A stretch of 64,000 bases of DNA from a phage, in the sequence record NC_101837.1. The stretch is one strand, 5' to 3'. Position numbers and translations under genes: made by a program. A model generated the notes under the pieces. That model saw only the letters and a program-made list of their open reading frames with translations. It had not been told where the DNA came from and made no database searches. This document shows, piece after piece, positions 1,882-63,884 of this stretch. Every line of letters begins with the position of its first letter. Position 1 is the first letter of the stretch.

Positions 1882-3066
1882 TTAAGCTTTAGCCAAAATG
1901 GCGCTAAACTCTTCACCAAACTCTTTTACAATCTTCATCAGGTTTGGGTATGCTTTGATCAGCTGAGCAACAATCTTGTCACGCCCTTTACCGATAAGCA
2001 AGGCATTTCCTAAGGCATTAGGTTTCATCATCGCCATAAAGACTGAGAATACAAAATCTCGGTTCTCGTCCTTGAAGTTTTCCCAAAGGAAATCGAGGAA
2101 GTTTGCCACGCAGCTGACAAGATCTTCGTCTGAGATACTTGCATTTTCCATCATATTACGAATAGCGATACAACCTTCAGATCCAAGAATCCACAAAATG
2201 TCTGGCTGCTTAGGACCTACGTATTCTTTGCAGCCACCTGCCATAATCCTACCGATTTCCGGTAAATTGCGTTTCTTGGTGTGGTATGTCCAGATCTCTA
2301 CCGCTGCAGTGTGACCAATAGCACCTTGCAGAAGAACACGGGCCATAGCGTCAGAAATAATACCACTGTCAAAATCGTGCAAGATGTCAGATGCAGCAAC
2401 CCAAGATCGTGGTGTGGCAAAAGATGGACAATTAATCTCAGCCATAGCCTCATAATTATCAATAGCTGATGGAACTCTTTTCAGATACCCAATTACAGAG
2501 GAGTGAACCCCGTTGAGGAATGCGTAGTCCTCAATAAACACCTCTGCATTGCTTGTAACCTCTACAATGATAAAACGGTTAGCCAGAGGGGCTTCGAGCG
2601 CCGAAAGAACCGCACCATCTGTAGAACGGTTACCCGCAGCCACAAAAACAGAACCCTTAGGGAATGCATAGGTGCCGCACTTGTGGTCAAGCATAATTTG
2701 CATTGCAACCTTTTGCAGGTAGTTATCTGCATGAGTGAGCTCATCCAGAAAGATAATTCCGCTCCAGTCAGGATCCGCAGGCCAAAATTCTGGAATTGCA
2801 AACACTGTACGTGTAGTTCCATCCGCTTCTACAGGGATAGGTAGCCCAGATAAGTCGGCAGGATCTTTATCTGACAGTCGCACGTCAACAAGGTTGTCAT
2901 CTCGCTCACCGAACATATTATCAGCGATCTGCTTCATCACCTGGCTTTTACCCACACCCATTGGTCCCAAAATTAGGACAGATCGGCTATGACGTTGGGC
3001 AAACTGAATGATAGCTGGCAACTCACGGACAGTGATTTGACCACTTTCAAATACGTTTCTTGACAT
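1882..3066 (-). CDS. MoxR-like AAA+ ATPase (CobS/RavA-type)
   Basis: 394 aa; Walker A LILGPMGVGKS, Walker B IIFLDELTHA, sensor AAGNRS; start overlaps stop of upstream gene. Confidence 0.65.
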   Translation of the reverse strand: MSRNVFESGQITVRELPAIIQFAQRHSRSVLILGPMGVGKSQVMKQIADNMFGERDDNLVDVRLSDKDPADLSGLPIPVEADGTTRTVFAIPEFWPADPDWSGIIFLDELTHADNYLQKVAMQIMLDHKCGTYAFPKGSVFVAAGNRSTDGAVLSALEAPLANRFIIVEVTSNAEVFIEDYAFLNGVHSSVIGYLKRVPSAIDNYEAMAEINCPSFATPRSWVAASDILHDFDSGIISDAMARVLLQGAIGHTAAVEIWTYHTKKRNLPEIGRIMAGGCKEYVGPKQPDILWILGSEGCIAIRNMMENASISDEDLVSCVANFLDFLWENFKDENRDFVFSVFMAMMKPNALGNALLIGKGRDKIVAQLIKAYPNLMKIVKEFGEEFSAILAKA

Positions 3067-43022: not shown

Positions 43023-43934
43023 TTATTTTCCGTTAACTTTGTTGTAGTTTCCCTGCTCAGATGGGACTATGGTAGAAGGTCTTCCATATTCCTGATAATA
43101 CCAATCCGCAGCAGATTGAGTAACACCGTTTTCATCCGTCCACATCATAGATTTGTAGGGCTGCCACTCTTCTGCGGCATTTGTGGATGCAGTGTCTGCA
43201 AATGCCCCTGTGTCCCTCTTGTTACCTACGTTACTGCCATTCTTACAGTCGTTGACAGCACCTTTTTGCTGGGTCTTGCCTACTTTCTTAGGGTTGCTGT
43301 ATACAGTTGCATTAACAACCTTGTTCAAGTAGAATGTGCGGAACTCTGTAAGTTCTACATCAAACACCATCGCAGCACCTTCACCAACAGACTTGTTGGC
43401 AGAAAGGCTGGTTATGATGTAGTTCTCAAGGAGTCTCTCCTCGGTAACCAAAGAAACCAACTGGCGCTTATTAATGATCTCAGTCAAAGCCTCCAGTGCA
43501 GCGCCTGGTCGCATAGACGCTGCAGGGTTTTTAGAGTCAGTATTCCTGTCAATGTAGTTTTGCTCATAGATTATATGTGGTGATGTATTTACCCTACCAG
43601 TAAAAGAAAATACACCATCTTTAATTACAGCGTGGTCTGACAGGGTAGATTTATCTTCCACCGCAAACCCAGTCTTATCAACAGAATGTTTGAAAGAGTA
43701 ATTCTCAACCTGATCGAAGATGATGGCAAGATCGTTAGTAAAGTTTTTACCCTTCATCTCCGTATTGCGACCACCATAGTTAAGACCGCTGACAAACATA
43801 GTGTACTTTACATCGCTTTCAGTTTGCTGTTCTGCCTTTTCAGCCTTTGGAGATTTAACCTCTTGAGGCTTGTACAGGTCTTTTTCATCAACTATATTGC
43901 TTGGCATAACCTCTCCAGGACACTCCGATACCAT
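43023..43934 (-). CDS. tail protein
   Basis: 303-aa ORF directly downstream of the tape measure gene. Confidence 0.3.
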   Translation of the reverse strand: MVSECPGEVMPSNIVDEKDLYKPQEVKSPKAEKAEQQTESDVKYTMFVSGLNYGGRNTEMKGKNFTNDLAIIFDQVENYSFKHSVDKTGFAVEDKSTLSDHAVIKDGVFSFTGRVNTSPHIIYEQNYIDRNTDSKNPAASMRPGAALEALTEIINKRQLVSLVTEERLLENYIITSLSANKSVGEGAAMVFDVELTEFRTFYLNKVVNATVYSNPKKVGKTQQKGAVNDCKNGSNVGNKRDTGAFADTASTNAAEEWQPYKSMMWTDENGVTQSAADWYYQEYGRPSTIVPSEQGNYNKVNGK

Positions 43935-44011: not shown

Positions 44012-46348
44012 TTACCAAAGGTCGGTAGACATGAAGTTGATATCTTTATTGTTCTCCCACTCAAGTTTTGCATCAAATATTTTGTTAAACTCACCCTCAT
44101 CTATTGAAATCGTGATTTTCCCATCACTGATCTCTAAAGGTAGCATTTCCATAGTTCTTAATTGAGAGGCAAAACCAGGGCCACCTGGCAACGGAAGAGT
44201 CCCGCCCGGTAAGGTGTCCAAAGGATTAACAAATCCGTTACCTCCCGATATGATATCTTTGCGAATCATATCGCTGATAGTATCCAGCTGCTGATTTCTT
44301 TCACTTAGTGGGTTGTAACGGTCATTAAATAATTCCCCGGCGCTTAGTATTGTACCGATAATGCCCAGCTTACCGAGCAGACCAACTTTGCCACCAGGTG
44401 TCTTGAGGCCACCCCCACCTTTTCCTGCCGGAGCTCCACCACCAGATCCTTCTGTAGTAGCGGCACCTGCTACTCCAGCTGCACCCCTTAGAGAGCTAAG
44501 GAATTTAAAGGTTTTTACAAGCATAGATGCCATGACAAAACCTTTTGTTAGGGCGTTGACGACCAGCATGATGGCAGCAGCAAACCCTGCCCATTTAGCA
44601 TAGCTAAAGGTGTCATGAAGCTCTTCAGAATATTCCTTCGTCTTAGCTGTTATGAACCCCCATTTAATCCCCCATTCAAGGAAAAACATGCGGATCTTGA
44701 CTATAGTGTTGTTCAGTTCACCAACTACCCAGTTAAGGCCTCTCACAAACCCGCTAACAAAATCACCAGAGGCATCCCACACAAATTGCAGAGTCTCACC
44801 AGTGCGGATTAGTGTATAATAGAACTCTGTTAGTTCGTCAGACCAACGGGTGAACAGTTTCTGACGAGTCAGTTCGATAAAGGTTTTCAGTCTGTTTTCT
44901 GCCAGCACGTTAGACTTCTGCATTCTTTCATAACCAGCTGCAGATGCCTCGTTCATGTACTTAGCCACATACTTCATGATCTTGGCTGTTTTAACCTCAC
45001 CTTTCTTCATCATGTCCATGAACTGATCCATGGAGAGTTCAGAAAGACCAAAAGCCTCTTTGGTGGCCTTAATAAAAGGTTCGTATGCACCAGGCAATGC
45101 TTCAGCAAGTTGTTGCTTCAGTTCTTCGGACATTACCTGTCCTTTCCCGAGCATCTGTTGGATTGCCATAATACCGCGCTGGTATTTTACCTCATCGGCA
45201 CCATAAGCAGCAGCATACTGGGAGTATGCAGAAAACAGCTCATGCACTTCCTGATTTGTCATCTGGTTTTTGGCGTTTACCGACATCTGGGCGTAACCTT
45301 GAAGACCAGATTTGAGATCAAAACCAAGACGCATAGCCTCTTGCTGGACAAACGCAACCTCACTGTTGGCTTTGTTTGGATCTCCAGTGACAGCAGTAAG
45401 AGCAGCACTTGCCCCCTCCATCATGTGACCGGATCTGTTAACCGCAGCAAATCCAGAAAAAGCTGTATACGCAGCTGTTGCATTAATAACAGATCTACGT
45501 AAGTCTCTCATGGCATCGCCTAGTGTAAGCGTTTGGCTGGTGGCGCTTTTAAACCCAGACTGCAGCGCTGACAGGTGGGCGTTAAAGGTTGACTTCTTCA
45601 TCTCCCCGCGAGCAAACCTGGACTCTAACTCTGAGTATCCTGGCAAGCTTCCACGGAATCCGGCCCCATACTTGGCAGAAAGTCTTATCGCGGAGTTGTA
45701 GAGGTGGGTTCTCCTTGCCTCACGATCCGACATAAGCCTATTATCCATACCAGCTTTACTGTCTCTTCTTAGCTGTCTATGATAACGATTCATAGCGGCT
45801 GTCTGAGCTTTCACAAGGTTAGGGTCGGAAGCCACACCACCCATATTAGGGTTACCTGGGATATATTTGAAAGATTTGGCATTAGCCAAAACTCTTGCCT
45901 TAGGTGCCTTATAACCGCCGTAAGACACTGGTGCAGATTTGGCAGCCTTTTTGGCCTCTTTAGCTTGCTGCTGGTAGAACTTACGCATCCTAGCCATTTC
46001 TGGATTTTTAGCGGTAAGATTACCTACAGCTTGTTTACGTCTCGCATTCTCCCTACGTTCTATTGCAGCCCTTACTGCAGCCTCTTTCTTGGCCTGTGCT
46101 ACGCTCTCTCTGTGCAGTTTAGCATTTGCCTGAGATTGCTGTCTGGCAACCCGCTGCATTGTCTGCTGGGTTTTAACAGCTACCGCCTGCCATCTACTCA
46201 TGGGGTTGGCTGAGTTAAAATCCTCGCCCAGTTTCCTGAACTCCCTCCCAATACTGCGAATTTTCTCTACAGCTTTTTTGTAGGAGGAGTTCTCTATCTC
46301 AAAGCCAATCTTGTTGACTGTTGTGGCAACTATTTTGTTTGTAGCCAT
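44012..46348 (-). CDS. tail tape measure protein
   Basis: 778 aa, largely helical Ala/Lys/Gln-rich with Gly-rich C-terminal segment; preceded by chaperone pair. Confidence 0.6.
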   Translation of the reverse strand: MATNKIVATTVNKIGFEIENSSYKKAVEKIRSIGREFRKLGEDFNSANPMSRWQAVAVKTQQTMQRVARQQSQANAKLHRESVAQAKKEAAVRAAIERRENARRKQAVGNLTAKNPEMARMRKFYQQQAKEAKKAAKSAPVSYGGYKAPKARVLANAKSFKYIPGNPNMGGVASDPNLVKAQTAAMNRYHRQLRRDSKAGMDNRLMSDREARRTHLYNSAIRLSAKYGAGFRGSLPGYSELESRFARGEMKKSTFNAHLSALQSGFKSATSQTLTLGDAMRDLRRSVINATAAYTAFSGFAAVNRSGHMMEGASAALTAVTGDPNKANSEVAFVQQEAMRLGFDLKSGLQGYAQMSVNAKNQMTNQEVHELFSAYSQYAAAYGADEVKYQRGIMAIQQMLGKGQVMSEELKQQLAEALPGAYEPFIKATKEAFGLSELSMDQFMDMMKKGEVKTAKIMKYVAKYMNEASAAGYERMQKSNVLAENRLKTFIELTRQKLFTRWSDELTEFYYTLIRTGETLQFVWDASGDFVSGFVRGLNWVVGELNNTIVKIRMFFLEWGIKWGFITAKTKEYSEELHDTFSYAKWAGFAAAIMLVVNALTKGFVMASMLVKTFKFLSSLRGAAGVAGAATTEGSGGGAPAGKGGGGLKTPGGKVGLLGKLGIIGTILSAGELFNDRYNPLSERNQQLDTISDMIRKDIISGGNGFVNPLDTLPGGTLPLPGGPGFASQLRTMEMLPLEISDGKITISIDEGEFNKIFDAKLEWENNKDINFMSTDLW

Positions 46349-50217: not shown

Positions 50218-50694
50218 TTATTTTTGCTGTCCAATTTTAAAGGTTGCAGATTCCAGCAGCACATCGTAATGCCGCATAGCCTCGTTGAAGCCCTTCTCTT
50301 GTGCCCACTGCTCACTAACAGTAGGGTTACTAAACTGACCAGCCTCAATAACAAACTGGATAGCTTTGGCCCCTGTGTCCCCCATCTGCTTAAGAATAGC
50401 CTCTGCACTTGATCCTCTAGCCATAGCTCTCAACAATTTTTCTGTCAAGGTCTGTAGTTGAGTGCTGTGAAATGCAAAAGCTGTCTCCATGAAATTGCGA
50501 ACAGGCAGCCCGTTCCAACCGAAGTTGTGAATGGCTGCCAATGTTGCCATATTTAAGCCTGACGGGTGAGGTTCGTCATAAAAGCCGTAGGTTATTGTTT
50601 TACTTTCAAGTCTCACAAGTTCTTTGTAGAAGCGATCTAAACGCTTTAGGTTGAACCTTGTTTGACATTTAACCTTTAGCATTATATCCCTCAC
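50218..50694 (-). CDS. neck/head completion protein
   Basis: 158-aa ORF. Confidence 0.3.
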   Translation of the reverse strand: MRDIMLKVKCQTRFNLKRLDRFYKELVRLESKTITYGFYDEPHPSGLNMATLAAIHNFGWNGLPVRNFMETAFAFHSTQLQTLTEKLLRAMARGSSAEAILKQMGDTGAKAIQFVIEAGQFSNPTVSEQWAQEKGFNEAMRHYDVLLESATFKIGQQK

Positions 50695-59579: not shown

Positions 59580-59656
59580 TGGTCTCCACGGAGTGATTCG
59601 AACACTCGACCTCCTGATCCCAAATCAGGCGCTCTACCAAGCTGAGCTACGCGGAG
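59580..59656 (-). tRNA. tRNA-Pro (anticodon UGG), CCA encoded
   Basis: by-eye cloverleaf: acceptor CUCCGCG/CGUGGAG (C1-G72), D-stem GCUC/GAGC, anticodon loop UUUGGGA, T-arm GAGUG-UUCGAAU-CACUC. Confidence 0.75.
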
Positions 59657-59667
59657 TATTTACTATT

Positions 59668-59742
59668 TGGTGGCCCTGGGTGGAATTGAACCACCGTCTG
59701 GCGATTATGAGTCGCTTGCTTGAACCTTCCAGCTACAGGGCC
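59668..59742 (-). tRNA. tRNA-Met or Ile2 (anticodon CAU), CCA encoded
   Basis: acceptor GGCCCUG/CAGGGCC, anticodon loop CUCAUAA, T-arm GGUGG-UUCAAUU-CCACC; D-stem has one mismatch. Confidence 0.65.
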
Positions 59743-59743
59743 T

Positions 59744-59819
59744 TGGTGCTGATGGCAGGACTTGAACCTACAACCTATTGATTACAAATCAATTGCACTA
59801 CCGATTGTGCTACATCAGC
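59744..59819 (-). tRNA. tRNA-Thr (anticodon UGU), CCA encoded
   Basis: acceptor GCUGAUG/CAUCAGC, D-stem GCAC/GUGC, anticodon stem AUUGA/UCAAU, loop UUUGUAA, T-loop UUCAAGU. Confidence 0.8.
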
Positions 59820-59824
59820 AAAAA

Positions 59825-59923
59825 GGTGCTAGGCGATGGAATCGAACCACCTATGTATTCAACGACTACCTCGTCTATTTTCAGGATTAAAAATCCTCGC
59901 CCTTGCCAAAGGGCTTACCTAGC
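59825..59923 (-). tRNA. atypical tRNA-like gene (possible anticodon UUU; ~30-nt extra arm)
   Basis: canonical T-arm GGUGG-UUCGAUU-CCAUC and 7-bp acceptor GCUAGGU/GCCUAGC, D-arm GCCC-UUUGGCAA-GGGC, anticodon region AGGAUUUUUAAUCCU, but ~97 nt long. Confidence 0.4.
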
Positions 59924-60021
59924 TCAGTATGTTGACCATGTTGCTAGTCGGCGATGACGACTGTAACATTTGATAATCCGGTTCTGCTTCCGGCTTTCGC
60001 TTAATTACAAGGTCAACAATG

Positions 60022-60112
60022 TGGCGGAGAGTAATGGAATCGAACCATCATCGAGTCATCCTCAACGGGACGGTTTTCAAGACCGCTTGAGCACCATTGC
60101 TCCCTACCCTCC
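60022..60112 (-). tRNA. tRNA-Ser (anticodon UGA), type II, CCA encoded
   Basis: acceptor GGAGGGU/ACUCUCC, anticodon arm GCGGU-CUUGAAA-ACCGU, extra arm UUGAG-GAUGA-CUCGA, T-loop UUCGAUU; D-arm spacing non-canonical in my parse. Confidence 0.55.
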
Positions 60113-60226
60113 TTTATAAATTATACTGATAATGACACTGATTTTCGAGCAGTTAGTGACTAGTATAAACGACGATAAATATCAATGCCATTATCTGTAT
60201 TATTTATGCATCTAAAAATATAAATT

Positions 60227-60313
60227 TGGTGGGGAGTGGTGGAGTCGAACCACCCGAGTCGCAATGACAATAGATTTACAGTCTACACCGCTACCTCTAC
60301 GGGATAACTCCCC
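60227..60313 (-). tRNA. tRNA-Tyr (anticodon GUA), type II, CCA encoded
   Basis: acceptor GGGGAGU/ACUCCCC, anticodon arm GUAGA-CUGUAAA-UCUAU, T-arm GGUGG-UUCGACU-CCACC; D-arm spacing non-canonical. Confidence 0.6.
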
Positions 60314-60317
60314 AATT

Positions 60318-60392
60318 TGGCACCCCGTACTGGACTCGAACCAGTGTCAACGGCTTAGAAGGCCGCTGCTTTATCCACTAAGCTAACAGGGC
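60318..60392 (-). tRNA. tRNA-Arg (anticodon UCU), CCA encoded
   Basis: acceptor GCCCUGU/ACGGGGU, D-arm GCUU-AGUGGAUA-AAGC, anticodon arm GCGGC-CUUCUAA-GCCGU, T-arm ACUGG-UUCGAGU-CCAGU. Confidence 0.7.
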
Positions 60393-60492
60393 ACTGGGTG
60401 GCTTTCTTTTACACCTTAGCCGCCAGAAAAGGTGGGAGACCATGTTTACAATATTACACTGTTAAGCAAAGTTTGTCAAGAAAATATTTTAG

Positions 60493-60828
60493 CTATTTGC
60501 TAACAGGCTGTATTTCTGTAGTAAATGGCATAAAAGGTGCTGGTTTTTCAGCCTCTTCCACTACCACCTCTTCCTCTTCACCAAACATCTCATCATATTC
60601 TTCCTGCATTCGGTCTGCCTTATCAAGAACATACTCTGCAATGCTTTGACGAATATTTTGTTTGGTTTTCGGGTCCAACATCAGCTCTCTTAAAACTTTG
60701 TGAGCTTCTGGAACCATCGCTATAAAAGATTCCTTCATATCAAGGATGTTCTTCTCTAGCTGAATGGCGTTGGACTCCTCTTTCAGAGGTCTGCCTCTAC
60801 GGCGACGCTTTTTAGTTGTATCCGCCAT
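60493..60828 (-). CDS. AT-hook-containing DNA-binding protein
   Basis: ORF track 60493..60948; ATG 60826-60828 (MADTTKKRRRRGRPLK...) preceded by GGAGGAAAC and by a consensus promoter; upstream open frame starts at TTG inside that promoter. Confidence 0.45.
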   Translation of the reverse strand: MADTTKKRRRRGRPLKEESNAIQLEKNILDMKESFIAMVPEAHKVLRELMLDPKTKQNIRQSIAEYVLDKADRMQEEYDEMFGEEEEVVVEEAEKPAPFMPFTTEIQPVSK

Positions 60829-60856
60829 GTTTCCTCCATTATCACGTGATAGGTGG

Positions 60857-60885
60857 ATTTTATCATAGCAAATACTGATTGTCAA
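60857..60885 (-). promoter_or_regulatory. sigma70-like promoter (TTGACA-17-TAAAAT)
   Basis: -35 at 60880-60885 and -10 at 60857-62 read on minus strand, 17-bp spacer, ~25 nt upstream of ATG 60828. Confidence 0.5.
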
Positions 60886-61174
60886 GTTCGCCGCAGGGTG
60901 GTATTCCCTGCGACTTGTCCAGCGTCCTGGACCAGCAAGACCCAACAAGTGGGTTACCAGAGGCCTATTACCCGCGCTTCGGCTCGACCTTGTTACAGGT
61001 TGGCTGGGGTCACATCGTCATGTGCTGGCTGCCCCTACCATTTTAAGTGTGGTGCACTATCAAGCCCTCTAAGGGGAACTCAGCCTTCTCCGAACCCTGT
61101 TTCAAAGCATCCAGAGATAAAGCCATCAAATTCATCTTTAAATTGGATATTCATCATGATACACGAAAACAACC

Positions 61175-61417
61175 TCATTGTAAAGCACAAATAAATAAAA
61201 CATACTTAATTTGTTTGTTATCAGGCTCAGGGTAGAAGTAGAAGATCTTGCTATCACCGATCTGAACACCACCATCCCAACAACATAGCCCATAACCTGT
61301 ATTCATACAAGCTAAGTCGTTGGCAAAATCTATTGCATCATCCAGTGCACGAAATTCACCTTCATCTTCTAAATAATCCTCATTCATGGAACGAAAAACG
61401 AGCTTAACCTTAAACAT
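61175..61417 (-). CDS. hypothetical protein
   Basis: 80-aa ORF. Confidence 0.35.
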   Translation of the reverse strand: MFKVKLVFRSMNEDYLEDEGEFRALDDAIDFANDLACMNTGYGLCCWDGGVQIGDSKIFYFYPEPDNKQIKYVLFICALQ

Positions 61418-61493
61418 AGCATTACCTGTAGACCTCGTAAGTTAAAATTGCATCACATCATATTGCAGATCTTATCAGGTAACACTATTTTTG

Positions 61494-61703
61494 TCAACAG
61501 ATTCCGGCCTTATCCTTCCTGTCTGCGTATTCTTTAATCGCAACCTCATCTGCATTAGTGACCAGGTCTTCAAAGTAACTCTCAAGCTCCTCGTCAATGT
61601 CAGGAGACCAGCCCTTTTTCCTGTCAGTGTGAATCGCAGACTTGTTAAACTTAGTACAGTTCTTTGCTACCGGATTGTTCATTAAGCACCCCTCAGCGTT
61701 CAT
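61494..61703 (-). CDS. hypothetical protein
   Basis: 69-aa ORF overlapping upstream gene by 11 nt. Confidence 0.3.
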   Translation of the reverse strand: MNAEGCLMNNPVAKNCTKFNKSAIHTDRKKGWSPDIDEELESYFEDLVTNADEVAIKEYADRKDKAGIC

Positions 61704-62271
61704 AGTAAATCTTATTTAACATTACCTCATCCTTTGCAGAAAGGATATCTAGATATGCATCACCGAATCTACCTGCAACAACCTCTGCATGATACATCAC
61801 TTCGTTAATATCGTCAAGAGTGATAACTGGATGACCGTATCTCTCTGAGTATTGTCTCAGAGTGCGATGTAGGGAGTCATCATCATAGGCAGACTTTTTA
61901 ATATCGCAAACACGACGAATAGCCTTGATGTCGAAAAACCCTGTACGATACCAACCAAGAAAAAGGTTTCGTGCAGTGTCAACATCTACATCAATACCAT
62001 TAAGAACCTTATCTACAAGATAGCTGTCATCCTTTGGACCAGCTTCCTTAGTGCGAATGTAGTTGCCATCTTTTCCAGGTGACATCTCCTTCTCATCACC
62101 AACCTGCATGCCATCATTTGGCGGTGTTAGCCACTTATCCGGATGCTTACGATCACGAGCGTTAGAATGATTACGCTGGAAACCGGGCTTCCACTTGAAA
62201 GTTTTCTCCATCTGTTCTTCATTCTGATAACGTTTTGCAATCTTTTCACGGTCATCTTTGCGTGAACCCAT
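61693..62271 (-). CDS. hypothetical protein
   Basis: 192-aa ORF; GAGGAGG 5 nt before ATG. Confidence 0.45.
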   Translation of the reverse strand: MGSRKDDREKIAKRYQNEEQMEKTFKWKPGFQRNHSNARDRKHPDKWLTPPNDGMQVGDEKEMSPGKDGNYIRTKEAGPKDDSYLVDKVLNGIDVDVDTARNLFLGWYRTGFFDIKAIRRVCDIKKSAYDDDSLHRTLRQYSERYGHPVITLDDINEVMYHAEVVAGRFGDAYLDILSAKDEVMLNKIYYER

Positions 62272-62640
62272 AGCTGCCTCCTCTTCAAGTTATAGAAAAA
62301 CTCACTGTATCGCTTTGTAACGAGCTTTTCTATCAAACTGGTGCGATTGCATTACCTGGTATAGTTTATATAGCTGTGGAGCGATTTAGGGGCCTTCTTG
62401 TCAGTTTCCACACATAAACTTCATCCAAGCTCGCGCGGGAGACTCTCAACCGACTCCTTACGGCGCTGGCAAGCTTTCGTCGGTGGTCCACATCAGTGCT
62501 CGGCCTTTGGCCTGCGCTATCGCTTCGCTCCCACACATGTTAACAGACCTGCATGTATGAACTTCTGTTATTGTGTGCACCAAGGAGGCCCGGCATCTCG
62601 CCCCTCGTAGGCGAGTGCCAATGAAGGGCCGACACTGCCC

Positions 62641-62775
62641 ATAGTAAGTAATAAATTTAAAACATGGTACTTAGGATCTAGTATATTCTACATAAGTTAA
62701 GTATATGTACTTAGTACCATAAGTACTAGATCTTTTATTTTTTATTATTTAGTTATTTTAGTTATATTCTTTATG
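62641..62775. other. AT-rich region with nested inverted repeats (candidate DNA-unwinding element)
   Basis: inverted repeats TAGTAC-N5-GTACTA (62712-62728), GTACTTAGTAC; long A/T runs 62731-62770. Confidence 0.35.
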
Positions 62776-62856
62776 TGTCCGTATCACGGACAGTTAGTGT
62801 CCGTATTACGGGCAGATGTGTCCGCGTGACGGACAGTAGTGTCCGTATCACGGACA
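62776..62856. repeat. four tandem 17-bp palindromes TGTCCGTnnnACGGACA at 21-22 bp spacing (iteron/operator array)
   Basis: copies at 62776, 62798, 62819, 62840; copies 1 and 4 identical, 2 and 3 one mismatch each; degenerate half-site at 62865-62880. Confidence 0.6.
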
Positions 62857-62931
62857 GTTAATAGTATCCGTTCCATGACGAACATAAAACATACGAATCC
62901 TTATAGTACAGATATTTAAGTTTTTACTGGT

Positions 62932-63282
62932 CTAACCAGTTGTTGACATCCGAATAACTTCTTCTGGTGGCAAAACTTTGGAAAATGTGCATCTTTTACC
63001 TCTCCCTTGTGTGGATGTTTCAACCACTCCTGCACATTCTAAAGTTTTAACGCACGCTGCTGCTTTTGTTTTCTTTATCCCAACATCTGCTGCAATTTTC
63101 CTTGTGCTTGGTGTGAAGCGTGAATTTCCTCCAAGCTTATACCAGTTGTGCAGGTAGCAGTATACGATCTTGTCATACAAGTCAAGAACAACAACCTCTC
63201 CAGTTGTGTCATTCAAAACTTTTGACATAGATAGTATTTCAAGGGGGACTTTAAGATATAGCAGCTTATCCCCATCTTTCAT
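62932..63282 (-). CDS. putative DNA-binding protein (winged-helix/HTH-like)
   Basis: 116 aa; segment STRKIAADVGIKKTKAAACVKTLECAGVVE resembles HTH recognition region; gene directly precedes the palindrome array. Confidence 0.35.
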   Translation of the reverse strand: MKDGDKLLYLKVPLEILSMSKVLNDTTGEVVVLDLYDKIVYCYLHNWYKLGGNSRFTPSTRKIAADVGIKKTKAAACVKTLECAGVVETSTQGRGKRCTFSKVLPPEEVIRMSTTG

Positions 63283-63329: not shown

Positions 63330-63884
63330 TTACTCCCTGCTGTCAATATCAAAACTCATTGCAATACGGTATGCCTCTTCTAATGGTAAGAGTCTTCCCC
63401 ACACATCCCAACCGACATCAAGCTGCCTGCCAAACAACTGTTGTGTGGTTCCGTGAGCATGACCGAACAGTTGGACTGATCCGTGAGGCTTTCTGTTCCA
63501 CTTTGCAAACTGGTAATGGCTCATACAGATCAAATTCTTGTTGTGGCGAAGCTCGTAATAATCTACAACCTCATGACCGAACTCTTTCACAATTCTGACA
63601 GTCGTCCTTGTGTCATGGTTGCCACGAACAAGAATAATATGTCCGTTCAACATATTTAGAATATCTGGAAGTAAGTTGTTGATATTCTTATCATTAGTGC
63701 ACGCAATATCTCCCAAGTGGAACACAGTGTCTGCAGGTGACACAACAGAGTTCCACTCGGCGATGATTCCCGCATTCATACTGTCAAGATTGTGATCATA
63801 CTGAGATCTGTGTTTTTGACATGAATCAAACTCCATGACCCGCTGGTGGAGAAAGTGTGTGTCGCTTGTTACAAAGTATTTCAT
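63330..63884 (-). CDS. metallophosphoesterase (calcineurin-like phosphatase)
   Basis: motifs SDTHF, HLGDIA, VRGNHD, GHAHG; ATG 63884 preceded by GAGGAA; ORF track start 63989 is a TTG in an upstream open frame; stop codon lies in loop of hairpin 63323-63340. Confidence 0.55.
   Translation of the reverse strand: MKYFVTSDTHFLHQRVMEFDSCQKHRSQYDHNLDSMNAGIIAEWNSVVSPADTVFHLGDIACTNDKNINNLLPDILNMLNGHIILVRGNHDTRTTVRIVKEFGHEVVDYYELRHNKNLICMSHYQFAKWNRKPHGSVQLFGHAHGTTQQLFGRQLDVGWDVWGRLLPLEEAYRIAMSFDIDSRE

Follow-up and report, generated by a model that had tools for sequence, protein, structure and literature searches.

The 64,000-nucleotide (nt) stretch of phage DNA in sequence record NC_101837.1 (the window, meaning the whole stretch analyzed) contains, at positions 62385-62640, a guanine-cytosine (GC)-rich region termed here island B. 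The window is identified from its sequence as a Vequintavirus (rV5-like) phage, with 98-99% identity to more than 100 Vequintavirus myophages of Escherichia coli in the island region. According to the list of open reading frames (ORFs), the genes around island B are all on the minus strand, which gives the order phosphoesterase gene, gene of a 116-amino-acid (aa) winged-helix protein, repeats, adenine-thymine (AT)-rich stretch, island B, and 192-aa gene. Island B is tentatively interpreted as the conserved structured non-coding arm of a lambda-type replication-origin module, with its sense (window minus) strand acting as RNA, a reading to which a probability of roughly 35% can be given. The features of the locus, including the predicted helices of the island, are listed below in minus-strand order.

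62932-63282, minus strand: gene of the 116-aa winged-helix protein, similar to the N-terminal domain of lambda O, and the expected cognate binder of the repeats
62776-62856: four 17-bp dyad-symmetric repeats, TGTCCGTGATACGGACA (twice), TGTCCGTCACGCGGACA, and TGCCCGTAATACGGACA, iterons or operators
62641-62775: AT-rich stretch of 135 bp (GC 0.20) with a long imperfect palindrome, directly upstream of H1, a candidate DNA-unwinding element
62587-62630, minus strand: H1, three-tier hairpin GGCCC / GGCA-CUCGCC [UACGAGG] GGCGAG-A-UGCC / GGGCC, 15 pairs
62532-62578, minus strand: H2, variable hairpin CACACA...UGUGUG with an apical AACAG...CUGUU
62433-62536, minus strand: multi-helix core domain of about 104 nt, made of the closing helix, Pa, and a bipartite P hairpin
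62528-62536 with 62433-62441, minus strand: closing helix, GUGUGGGAG with CUCCCGCGC, two U-G wobbles
Inside the core, minus strand: Pa, small hairpin GC-GAUA-GC
62449-62484, minus strand: P hairpin, stem ACCGAC (62479-62484) / GUCGGU (62449-62454)
62455-62478, minus strand: apical part of the P hairpin, 24 nt, GAAAGCUUGCCAGCGCCGUAAGGA
62385-62432, minus strand: 3' tail of the island, with a second GUGUGG (62408-62413) and AAGGCCCCUAAAUCGC, moderately conserved in the alignments
62338-62358, no strand assigned: motif CAGGTAATGCAATCGCACCAG, which includes the near-palindrome TGCAATCGCA, outside the island proper
61693-62271, minus strand: 192-aa gene with no assigned function, directly after island B

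The GC content of island B is 0.566 (56.6%), compared with a window mean of 0.442 (44.2%; standard deviation 0.032 over 256-nt windows). This is the maximum among all 256-nt windows of the 64 kb (fraction at least as high: 0.0003), and the flanks are at 0.42 (192-aa gene) and 0.20 (AT-rich stretch). An initial annotation, made from the sequence alone, had described a GC-rich non-coding island lying beside a putative origin and containing several hairpins, and had proposed a structured RNA or a DNA recognition element. Its description of composition and reading frames is borne out, the minus strand containing only ORFs of 56, 41, and 31 aa, and the plus strand a TTG-started ORF of 70 aa at 62398-62610. 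The 31- and 56-aa ORFs are annotated as hypothetical in rV5 (ORF 78), PMBT16, and BASEL phages, most relatives being unannotated here. Over the 109 distinct substitutions seen in 18 phage variants, the annotated frame shows 26 synonymous versus 82 non-synonymous changes, which is no better than the other five frames (24-37 versus 72-82), and island B is judged to be non-coding.

No known RNA family accounts for the element, in agreement with the earlier failure to recognize RNase P, tmRNA, or 6S RNA by eye. A search of the whole window with Rfam 15 at the gathering threshold returned nothing in island B; with E-values up to 10, the region 60400-63000 gave only weak chance hits, outside the island or across the AT-rich palindrome. 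A miRNA-like match at the AT-rich stretch was discarded as spurious, since it reflects the palindrome. Likewise, Rfam found nothing on the plasmid loci described below, and ARAGORN found no tRNA-like gene in island B, in the divergent phage L102, or in the plasmids. The folding energy of the 276-nt island is itself unremarkable (z = -1.3 and -1.5 on the two strands, relative to shuffles). The case for structure beyond chance, therefore, rests on the relatives of the element and not on thermodynamics.

All 118 related phage records carry island B, at 90-100% identity; it is also found, at 82% identity, in L102, a divergent metagenomic phage of 137 kb that is its one true relative in IMG/VR. The suggestion that it could be a captured host fragment fails, as no chromosomal match exists in 5,426 complete E. 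coli genomes: the only matches are on small circular plasmids of 13.2-13.9 kb, found in 7 of these genomes. The plasmids encode major capsid, tape-measure, Dit-like or baseplate, and helix-turn-helix proteins, several of which are 35-52% identical to tail proteins encoded in the window (~43.5, 45-46, and 50.3 kb; genes at about 43491-43778, 45053-46006, and 50254-50406). The capsid is private to the plasmid family (loci L107, L108, L109, L163, and L164, which also carry O-like initiators) and absent from IMG/VR. It forms 18 protein clusters, all at least 81% identical to the query capsid; every cluster with a named source comes from E. coli, and all but four are on contigs of ~13.4-14.3 kb. 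No description of this family was found in the literature searched. The plasmids may be satellites or assembly parasites of Vequintavirus. Their copy of the element sits in a non-coding region of 2.2-2.6 kb. One plasmid record of 39.6 kb carries three copies of the element and looks like a trimer.

The initial annotation had pointed to a nested hairpin, GGCCC / GGCA-CTCGCC-N7-GGCGAG-A-TGCC / GGGCC, which is indeed present at 62587-62630. This is H1, and, folded alone, it reaches z = -3.3, none of 200 shuffles being as stable. Its stems are invariant in the 18 phage variants, which differ in the loops only. A second hairpin noted at the same time, GGCC-TTTG-GCC at 62502-62512, exists but is not conserved: written as GGCC-AAA-GGCC, it was rejected as a conserved feature, being broken in 2 of the 18 variants and absent from the plasmids. 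A pairing of GGAC with GUCU (62486-62489 with 62439-62442) was also rejected, as its two variable columns vary without correlation. H2 is much less constant than H1, with an 18-nt apical deletion in rV5, Pr121LW, C2, and MaxTheCat and a divergent sequence in L102; its position in the plasmids is occupied by other hairpin cassettes. H2 can be regarded as a dispensable spacer module. Downstream of it, the closing helix encloses Pa, phage-specific small hairpins, and the P hairpin. At the place equivalent to the 3' tail of the island, the plasmids have AAG(G/C)CCCCTAAAT(G)GC.

Evidence for selection on structure is provided by the comparison of the window with plasmid CP020521. In H1, GGCA/UGCC is replaced by GUCA/UGAC and CUCGCC/GGCGAG by CUCUCC/GGAGAG, that is, two compensatory pairs with none broken. 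In the P stem, ACCGAC/GTCGGT is replaced by GCTGCC/GGCAGC. Altogether, 5 of 21 pairs are changed on both sides and none is broken, and 10 of the 15 differences in the two aligned blocks fall at compensated positions. When the same numbers of substitutions were scattered at random, all pairs stayed intact in 0.5% of trials, and in none of 200,000 trials did they stay intact with ten stem substitutions (permutation P<5e-6). RNAalifold reports three compensatory P pairs, as well as G-U intermediates in L102 and L105. The stem is ACCGAC/GUCGGU in most phages, GCCGAC/GUCGGU with a G-U pair in L102 and L105, GCUGCC/GGCAGC in the plasmid core type called sat1, and UCCGGAU/AUCCGGA in the type called sat2. 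Within the phages, the only changes seen at H1 and P stem positions are to G-U, variation otherwise being found in the loops.

The sat2 plasmids (L163, L164, and L172-L174) have a core barely recognized by BLAST, in which the closing helix, Pa, and a bipartite P hairpin are nevertheless retained, formed by other sequences. Their closing helix pairs a 5' strand GUGUGGG... with a 3' strand ...CCCGCGC, Pa is GUGC-GAUA-GCAC (AUGC-GUCA-GCAU in sat1), and the apical part of P, above the stem UCCGGAU/AUCCGGA, is replaced by AAGAGACUUCUGUUUCCA. In contrast, the apical sequence of P is identical in phages and sat1, save for one U/G position, with flanks ~15% diverged; the variable position is possibly the N of a CC-GNAA-GG (GNRA) loop. 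The closing helix, Pa, and the P hairpin are common to the predicted minimum-energy RNA folds of the phage and sat2 cores, whereas the closing helix and the P stem are both missing from that of the sat1 core. In phages and sat1 plasmids, a covariance model detects a single core copy per genome; the sat2 cores scored strongly only with model R1, whose alignment already included sat2. The covariation claim is founded on the phage-plasmid alignments, RNAalifold, the comparison of folds, and the permutation test. Compensatory changes across lineages, the generic mark of a structured RNA, are thus found in the relatives, and the stems of island B are judged to be kept by compensatory mutation under selection on structure. 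This supports the proposal of a structured element, and the covariation check in relatives that had been suggested gave the five double substitutions in H1 and the P stem, without a broken pair.

Searches outside these two groups were negative. The covariance model found nothing in the loci of three other genera (4MG, a Klebsiella phage, and VEcB), the sat2-type core had no match in the phage collection, and neither the sat2 hairpin nor a generic closing-helix pattern turned up in collection-wide scans. Matches of 18- and 21-mers in genome_contigs, and most of those in metagenomes, were dismissed as chance in GC-rich coding DNA. Homology searches confine the 192-aa and 116-aa proteins to Vequintavirus; the phosphoesterase reaches other phage genera, where the gene order differs.

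The neighbourhood of the element bears on its possible role. An ori-lambda layout consists of four dyad repeats followed by an AT-rich stretch. The DNA next to island B has the components of a lambda-type origin, namely an O-like winged-helix gene and about four dyad iterons followed by an AT-rich stretch, which supports the putative origin of the initial annotation. The 116-aa protein matches PHROGs 12838, 8102, and 428, all named 'replication initiation protein' (annotations, not experiments). Its Pfam HTH_36 score is 24.5 bits for a cut-off of 25, and DUF6945 is also just below its curated cut-off. It shows weak similarity (E = 1e-4) to a plasmid HTH_36 protein of 288 aa, and the plasmid proteins of 288-306 aa match O-like, 'replication initiation', and DnaD-like PHROGs. 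The dyad repeats are annotated as repeat_region in relatives. Plasmid L108 (6882-7247), like L109, encodes an extra protein of ~121 aa, homologous only to the N-terminal domain of the ~300-aa O-like protein, which parallels the stand-alone 116-aa protein of the phage.

The initiator and its repeats are exchanged beside a constant element. In L102, a 143-aa winged-helix initiator of unrelated sequence is accompanied by TGCATCAGAT-type repeats and a different AT-rich stretch (swapped cassette at 2170-2340 and 2339-2770, minus strand); H1 starts directly after the cassette, and the phosphoesterase, island B, and the 192-aa gene are kept. The plasmids have at least five repeat types paired with diverged initiators, and core type and repeat type assort independently. 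Hairpin cassettes (M1-M4, H1, and others) precede the plasmid core in varying combinations. Each one is followed by (T)GTGTGTGGG, and the last cassette, whichever it is, donates the 5' strand of the closing helix through this sequence. In at least seven contexts with swapped initiators, the element lies just downstream of initiator, iterons, and AT-rich stretch, in constant order and orientation. Since initiators and repeats are swapped beside the same element, island B can be viewed, on comparative grounds, as the constant partner of an exchangeable initiator/iteron cassette.

Several observations concern the strand and the chemical nature of the fold. The neighbouring genes all lie on the sense strand of island B. 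In 18 of 19 sequences, this strand has the more stable fold (mean -39.7 versus -35.0 kcal/mol, a difference of 4.7). The closing helix is predicted on this strand only (7.1 versus 1.9 expected pairs), an effect of the wobble pairing between UG and CG repeats. Sense specificity is likewise seen in the G-U intermediates, which occur in the P stem of L102 and L105 and in the closing helix of L102. RNA parameters place the covarying helices in the minimum-energy fold of the phage and sat2 cores. Under DNA parameters, the preferred fold of the phage and sat1 cores lacks these core helices (z = +0.6), although H1 folds well (z = -3.3). C(UUCG)G loops are present in plasmid cassettes. RNA is favoured over DNA by these predictions, though only modestly. 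Proteins can stabilize DNA folds, which weakens the argument, and the strand evidence does not separate an RNA from a displaced strand, because both share the same sequence.

Regarding transcription, from the promoter at 63346 down to the 192-aa gene no further sigma-70-like promoter and no terminator is predicted; transcripts are, therefore, expected to read through island B, which is likely transcribed. We infer that it acts in replication, that it does so as RNA, and that replication starts at the iterons. In the proposed mechanism, the initiator and iterons would be interchangeable specificity parts and the island the constant part, which, because it is kept constant, would most likely serve a common step, the start of DNA synthesis after origin opening. 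The early-operon transcript would cross the origin and fold into H1 and the core beside the opened AT-rich DNA, where it could activate the origin, supply the primer, or provide a docking surface for a factor involved in priming or loading. The 13-kb plasmids, with the same element beside their own initiator and iterons, would use the same step. The proposed analogues of this role are ColE1 RNA II, the T4 oriF/oriG transcripts, and the transcriptional activation of ori-lambda.

Other data weigh against this interpretation. A transposon sequencing (Tn-seq) preprint on phage Bas54 (MaxBurger), whose island is 98.5% identical to that of the window, reports insertions in 5 of 5 TA sites of bas54_0214 (H1 and H2; mean reads 135) and in 4 of 6 of bas54_0215 (core and tail; mean 78) (bioRxiv 10.1101/2025.11.20.689424). 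For the neighbouring features, it gives insertions in 17 of 20 sites of bas54_0212 (the 116-aa winged-helix initiator; mean ~14), 4 of 7 in bas54_0213 (a small ORF over the repeats; mean ~18), and 31 of 34 in the non-essential bas54_0216 (192-aa gene; mean 139.5) (bioRxiv 10.1101/2025.11.20.689424). Insertions in initiator and iterons, thus, give ~10-fold lower counts, yet no essentiality, and a ~2.5-kb intergenic region elsewhere in Bas54 received none at all (bioRxiv 10.1101/2025.11.20.689424). Island B, whose core holds two TA sites (in GATAGC, 62519-62520, and in CGTAAG, 62459-62460, in window coordinates), is dispensable for growth on the two hosts used in that work. Its normal counts, compared with the ~10-fold cost in the initiator, imply that the contribution of the initiator does not need an intact island, at least as regards H1 and H2, and the insertion-free 2.5-kb region may be the main origin.

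On the transcriptional side, no transcriptome was found for the Vequintavirus group in the literature searched, no promoter or terminator of its own is predicted for the element, and the plasmids have no promoter-like site before it. The plasmid operon upstream is closed by a strong terminator and the terminator-like hairpins face the opposite way, so that sense transcription in the plasmids is only putative. The overall folding z-scores of the phage and sat1 cores are unremarkable. Finally, GTGTGGG occurs in both orientations elsewhere in the plasmid non-coding DNA and in the Bas54 2.5-kb region, where it is frequent, a distribution that suggests a double-stranded DNA protein site and not an RNA feature. 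The (T)GTGTGG(G) sites are at 62408-62413 and 62531-62536 of the window, within 3000-5000 of L107, and in L165 (Bas54 92786-95297); a simple arithmetic estimate gives ~1.5 expected TGTGTGG in 12 kb of plasmid, where 18 are found. GTGTGGG may be a protein-binding DNA site as well as a closing-helix strand. Some copies resemble DnaA boxes (TGTGGATAA and TGTGGGTAA).

The main rival explanation, itself tentative and somewhat less probable than the preferred reading, keeps the coupling to the origin and transfers the fold to single-stranded DNA. Once synthesis or unwinding enters the island from the opened AT-rich stretch, the displaced sense strand would form an ssi-like site for primosome assembly or primase, on the model of the R1 G site, located downstream of oriR, the pas sites of ColE1, and the G4 and phiX174 complementary-strand origins. 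ssi sites are multi-hairpin elements of ~60-140 nt, beside or downstream of origins, common to E. coli phages and plasmids, strand-specific, and dispensable in vivo. The geometry fits, as the order of iterons, AT-rich stretch, and structured region puts the latter on the displaced strand, the lagging-strand template; the position of the island relative to the unwinding element likewise fits the G4 oric, R1/R100 G, and ColE1 pas sites. The non-essentiality of ssi sites matches the tolerance seen by Tn-seq, a promoter becomes unnecessary, which removes the difficulty raised by the plasmids, H1 folds well as DNA, and recognition by a host factor would explain the identical apical sequence in phage and plasmid. 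Nevertheless, the core is a closed multi-branch domain and not a row of independent hairpins, its covarying helices are not preferred with DNA parameters, and the closing helix would require two G-T mismatches. As for known sites, neither BLAST nor the covariance model gave a significant match to G4 or phiX174. The words shared with G4 oric and the phiX174 F-G region (CAAAGGCCG, GAGTCTCC, CGAAAGC, and AGCGAAGCG) are at chance level; BLAST-short against G4 oric gave only 8-9-nt words that are not collinear, and the best unfiltered hit of model R2 in G4 had E = 3 and was not at oric. The covariance model had no hit at the phiX174 F-G PriA site. The 9-mer AGCGAAGCG, which holds the GCGAAGC mini-hairpin, is also at phiX174 2357-2365, with about seven shared 9-mers expected genome-wide by chance. 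The strand data do not discriminate here, for the reason given above.

Alternatively, island B could be a free-standing or cis-regulatory RNA without a role in replication, its adjacency to the origin being mere genome organization: a phage-protein platform mimicked by the plasmids, an anti-defence decoy, or an antitermination or processing element. This is doubtful, but agrees with the structure, the strand, and the RNA-like features, and with the laboratory dispensability that is usual for accessory RNAs. An apical loop that is the same in phages and sat1 and different in sat2 suggests a specificity determinant, and the baseplate, tape-measure, and other phage homologues of the plasmids indicate that these interact with, or descend from, the phage. 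Precedents are available in the P1 c4 and P4 CI RNAs, which are common to phage and satellite. Another is the RNA mimic of the ToxI antitoxin reported for PhiTE, a phage described in the same work as a flagellum-dependent myovirus (PMC3475682). On the other hand, the strict linkage to initiator, iterons, and AT-rich stretch in at least seven contexts with swapped initiators would have to be a coincidence. The element has no promoter or terminator of its own, and the genes downstream differ between phage and plasmids, so it is not the leader of one conserved gene. Neither loop type has a complementary target, the search of the phage window and the plasmids yielding only chance-level 8-11-mers, none common to the two types.

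It is quite improbable that the hairpins are selfish or neutral palindromic cassettes, small and mobile or prone to recombination, that gather at GTGTGGG in non-coding DNA, have passed between phage and plasmids, and are kept for a mobility or recombination mechanism. The cassettes M1-M4, H1, and others are present or absent in varied combinations in the plasmids, bounded by (T)GTGTGTGGG, H2 is partly deleted in several phages, and the GTGTGG motif is over-represented in the plasmids. Only these flanking cassettes vary, however: the core is single-copy in every genome and never dispersed, its long-range closing helix and multi-branch architecture exceed a simple palindrome, and the loci examined showed no IS200/IS605-type or RAYT-type transposase. 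A mobile palindrome of the REP/PATE kind was rejected in the same way, with one copy per genome in the window and in the plasmids.

That the island is simply a long leader upstream of the 192-aa coding sequence, or a spacer between cistrons whose structure is incidental, is very improbable: it has the orientation of this gene, lies upstream of it, is probably co-transcribed with it, and is followed by a separate conserved 12-bp hairpin (62292-62333) just before the ribosome-binding site, but the plasmids carry the element without a homologue of the gene and with their operon promoter downstream of the element, and the compensatory evolution means that the structure is not incidental, in front of a gene that is non-essential. 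Small proteins encoded by the 31-aa and 56-aa minus-strand ORFs can hardly be the explanation, despite their annotation in some records and their fusion into a 65-aa frame in L102, given the substitution ratio reported above, the non-synonymous nature of the compensatory stem changes, a stop in that frame in the plasmids, and the lack of a ribosome-binding site.

Returning to the preferred reading, a structured RNA arm of the origin, comparison with known systems shows partial likeness to several. With ori-lambda and lambdoid O-type origins, the locus shares the winged-helix initiator, the four dyad iterons, the AT-rich stretch, and the transcription expected across the origin. However, the origin of lambda is contained within the O gene and lacks a large, conserved, structured arm rich in GC, the phage initiator here has only 116 aa, and the island has neither a counterpart in lambda nor any sequence similarity to oop. 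ColE1 RNA II and T4 oriF/oriG offer origin-crossing transcripts with a folded structure for priming, with GC-rich RNA by the start site. Nevertheless, ColE1 has no initiator or iterons and does have an antisense RNA I, whereas the island has no Rfam RNAI hit and no dedicated promoter, and nothing at island B indicates R-loop formation. The P1 c4 and P4 CI RNAs (Rfam C4) are processed from an operon transcript. They resemble island B as structured RNAs common to a phage and a satellite or plasmid-like element; size and architecture differ, and no Rfam model matches. RSF1010 oriV comprises iterons, GC-rich and AT-rich segments, then conserved hairpin sites for a dedicated primase. The order of iterons, AT-rich stretch, and hairpin region is the same here, but ssiA and ssiB are two 40-nt palindromes on opposite strands, while the island is one strand-biased region of 250 nt without sequence similarity to them. 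By analogy, island B would work most like the accessory structured origin elements (ColE1 RNA II, T4 transcripts, ssi sites, RSF1010), yet it is a member of none.

A more speculative extension, which we consider doubtful, is that island B belongs to a hitherto undescribed class of structured RNAs coupled to origins (or of DNA folds specific to one strand), which would offer the machinery of replication or priming a common 'socket' and be copied by satellite-like plasmids. If so, the plasmid would keep the phage socket beside its own initiator and be amplified or activated upon phage infection, and the P apical loop would be a specificity determinant, sat1 matching the phage and sat2 an unsampled helper. 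Vequintavirus phages are common components of therapeutic cocktails, and, to our knowledge, hardly any replication origin of a large lytic coliphage has been mapped apart from those of T4, T7, and lambda. In this context, the locus provides an origin-like module that is small and open to testing, and in which the part that stays constant is a folded element with clear compensatory evolution. The element links phages to rare 13-kb E. coli plasmids, possible satellites or assembly-interfering parasites, and, if it is a shared contact point, it offers a handle on helper recognition by such plasmids. If it is a new structured RNA, it belongs to a family missing from current RNA libraries.

Some additional features of the locus and its relatives can be mentioned. 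The insertion-free region of Bas54 (92786-95297, L165), outside the window, contains GTGTAAAC-like repeat arrays and GC-rich patches, and could be the main origin or a packaging site. Island B is not related to it by homology, the covariance model finds no core copy in it, and it was rejected as a homologue of the 2.3-kb non-coding region of the plasmids, with which it has only a 24-nt word in common.

The motif at 62338-62358 has a plasmid copy that is identical at 19 of 20 positions, in inverted orientation relative to the core (L004, ~1382-1401), as expected for a double-stranded DNA binding site. The 20-nt form common to phage and plasmids is CAGGTAATGCAAT(C/T)GCACCA, and the motif is probably a protein-binding DNA site. 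Directly 5' of the ribosome-binding site of the 192-aa gene, the 12-bp hairpin at 62292-62333 (minus strand; AUAGAAAAGCUC / GAGUUUUUCUAU, 18-nt loop) is nearly invariant, even in the divergent phage L102, and could be an operator or a 5' untranslated region structure.

Beyond the 192-aa gene, the minus-strand order continues with two small genes and a second GC-rich island, after which come a small essential gene and a tRNA cluster. The second island, island A (~60870-61040, minus strand), is non-coding, with up to 56.5% GC and a folding z of -1.6, and is followed downstream by a strong sigma-70-like promoter (60885-60857) and by the gene at 60493-60828. It was rejected as a paralogue of island B, as it has no covariance-model hit and no match in E. 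coli genomes. The Bas54 orthologue of the gene at 60493-60828 is essential, with 1 of 20 TA sites hit (bioRxiv 10.1101/2025.11.20.689424). ARAGORN places seven tRNAs at 59580-60392, and tRNAs are all that Rfam reports in the whole window at the gathering threshold. One of them, at 59825-59923 (minus strand), is a 99-nt tRNA with a four-base anticodon (atcc), not reported by the Rfam tRNA model at the gathering score and labelled tRNA-Lys-TTT, tRNA-OTHER, or not at all in relatives; it may be intron-containing or otherwise aberrant.

Lastly, 18 GenBank records named 'Campylobacter phage' (MG0656xx, e.g., L166) are 91-99% identical to E. coli Vequintavirus in this region. The record fetched from that series, MG065655 (phage C2), carries an UNVERIFIED mark, and the Campylobacter host labels of the series are probably wrong.

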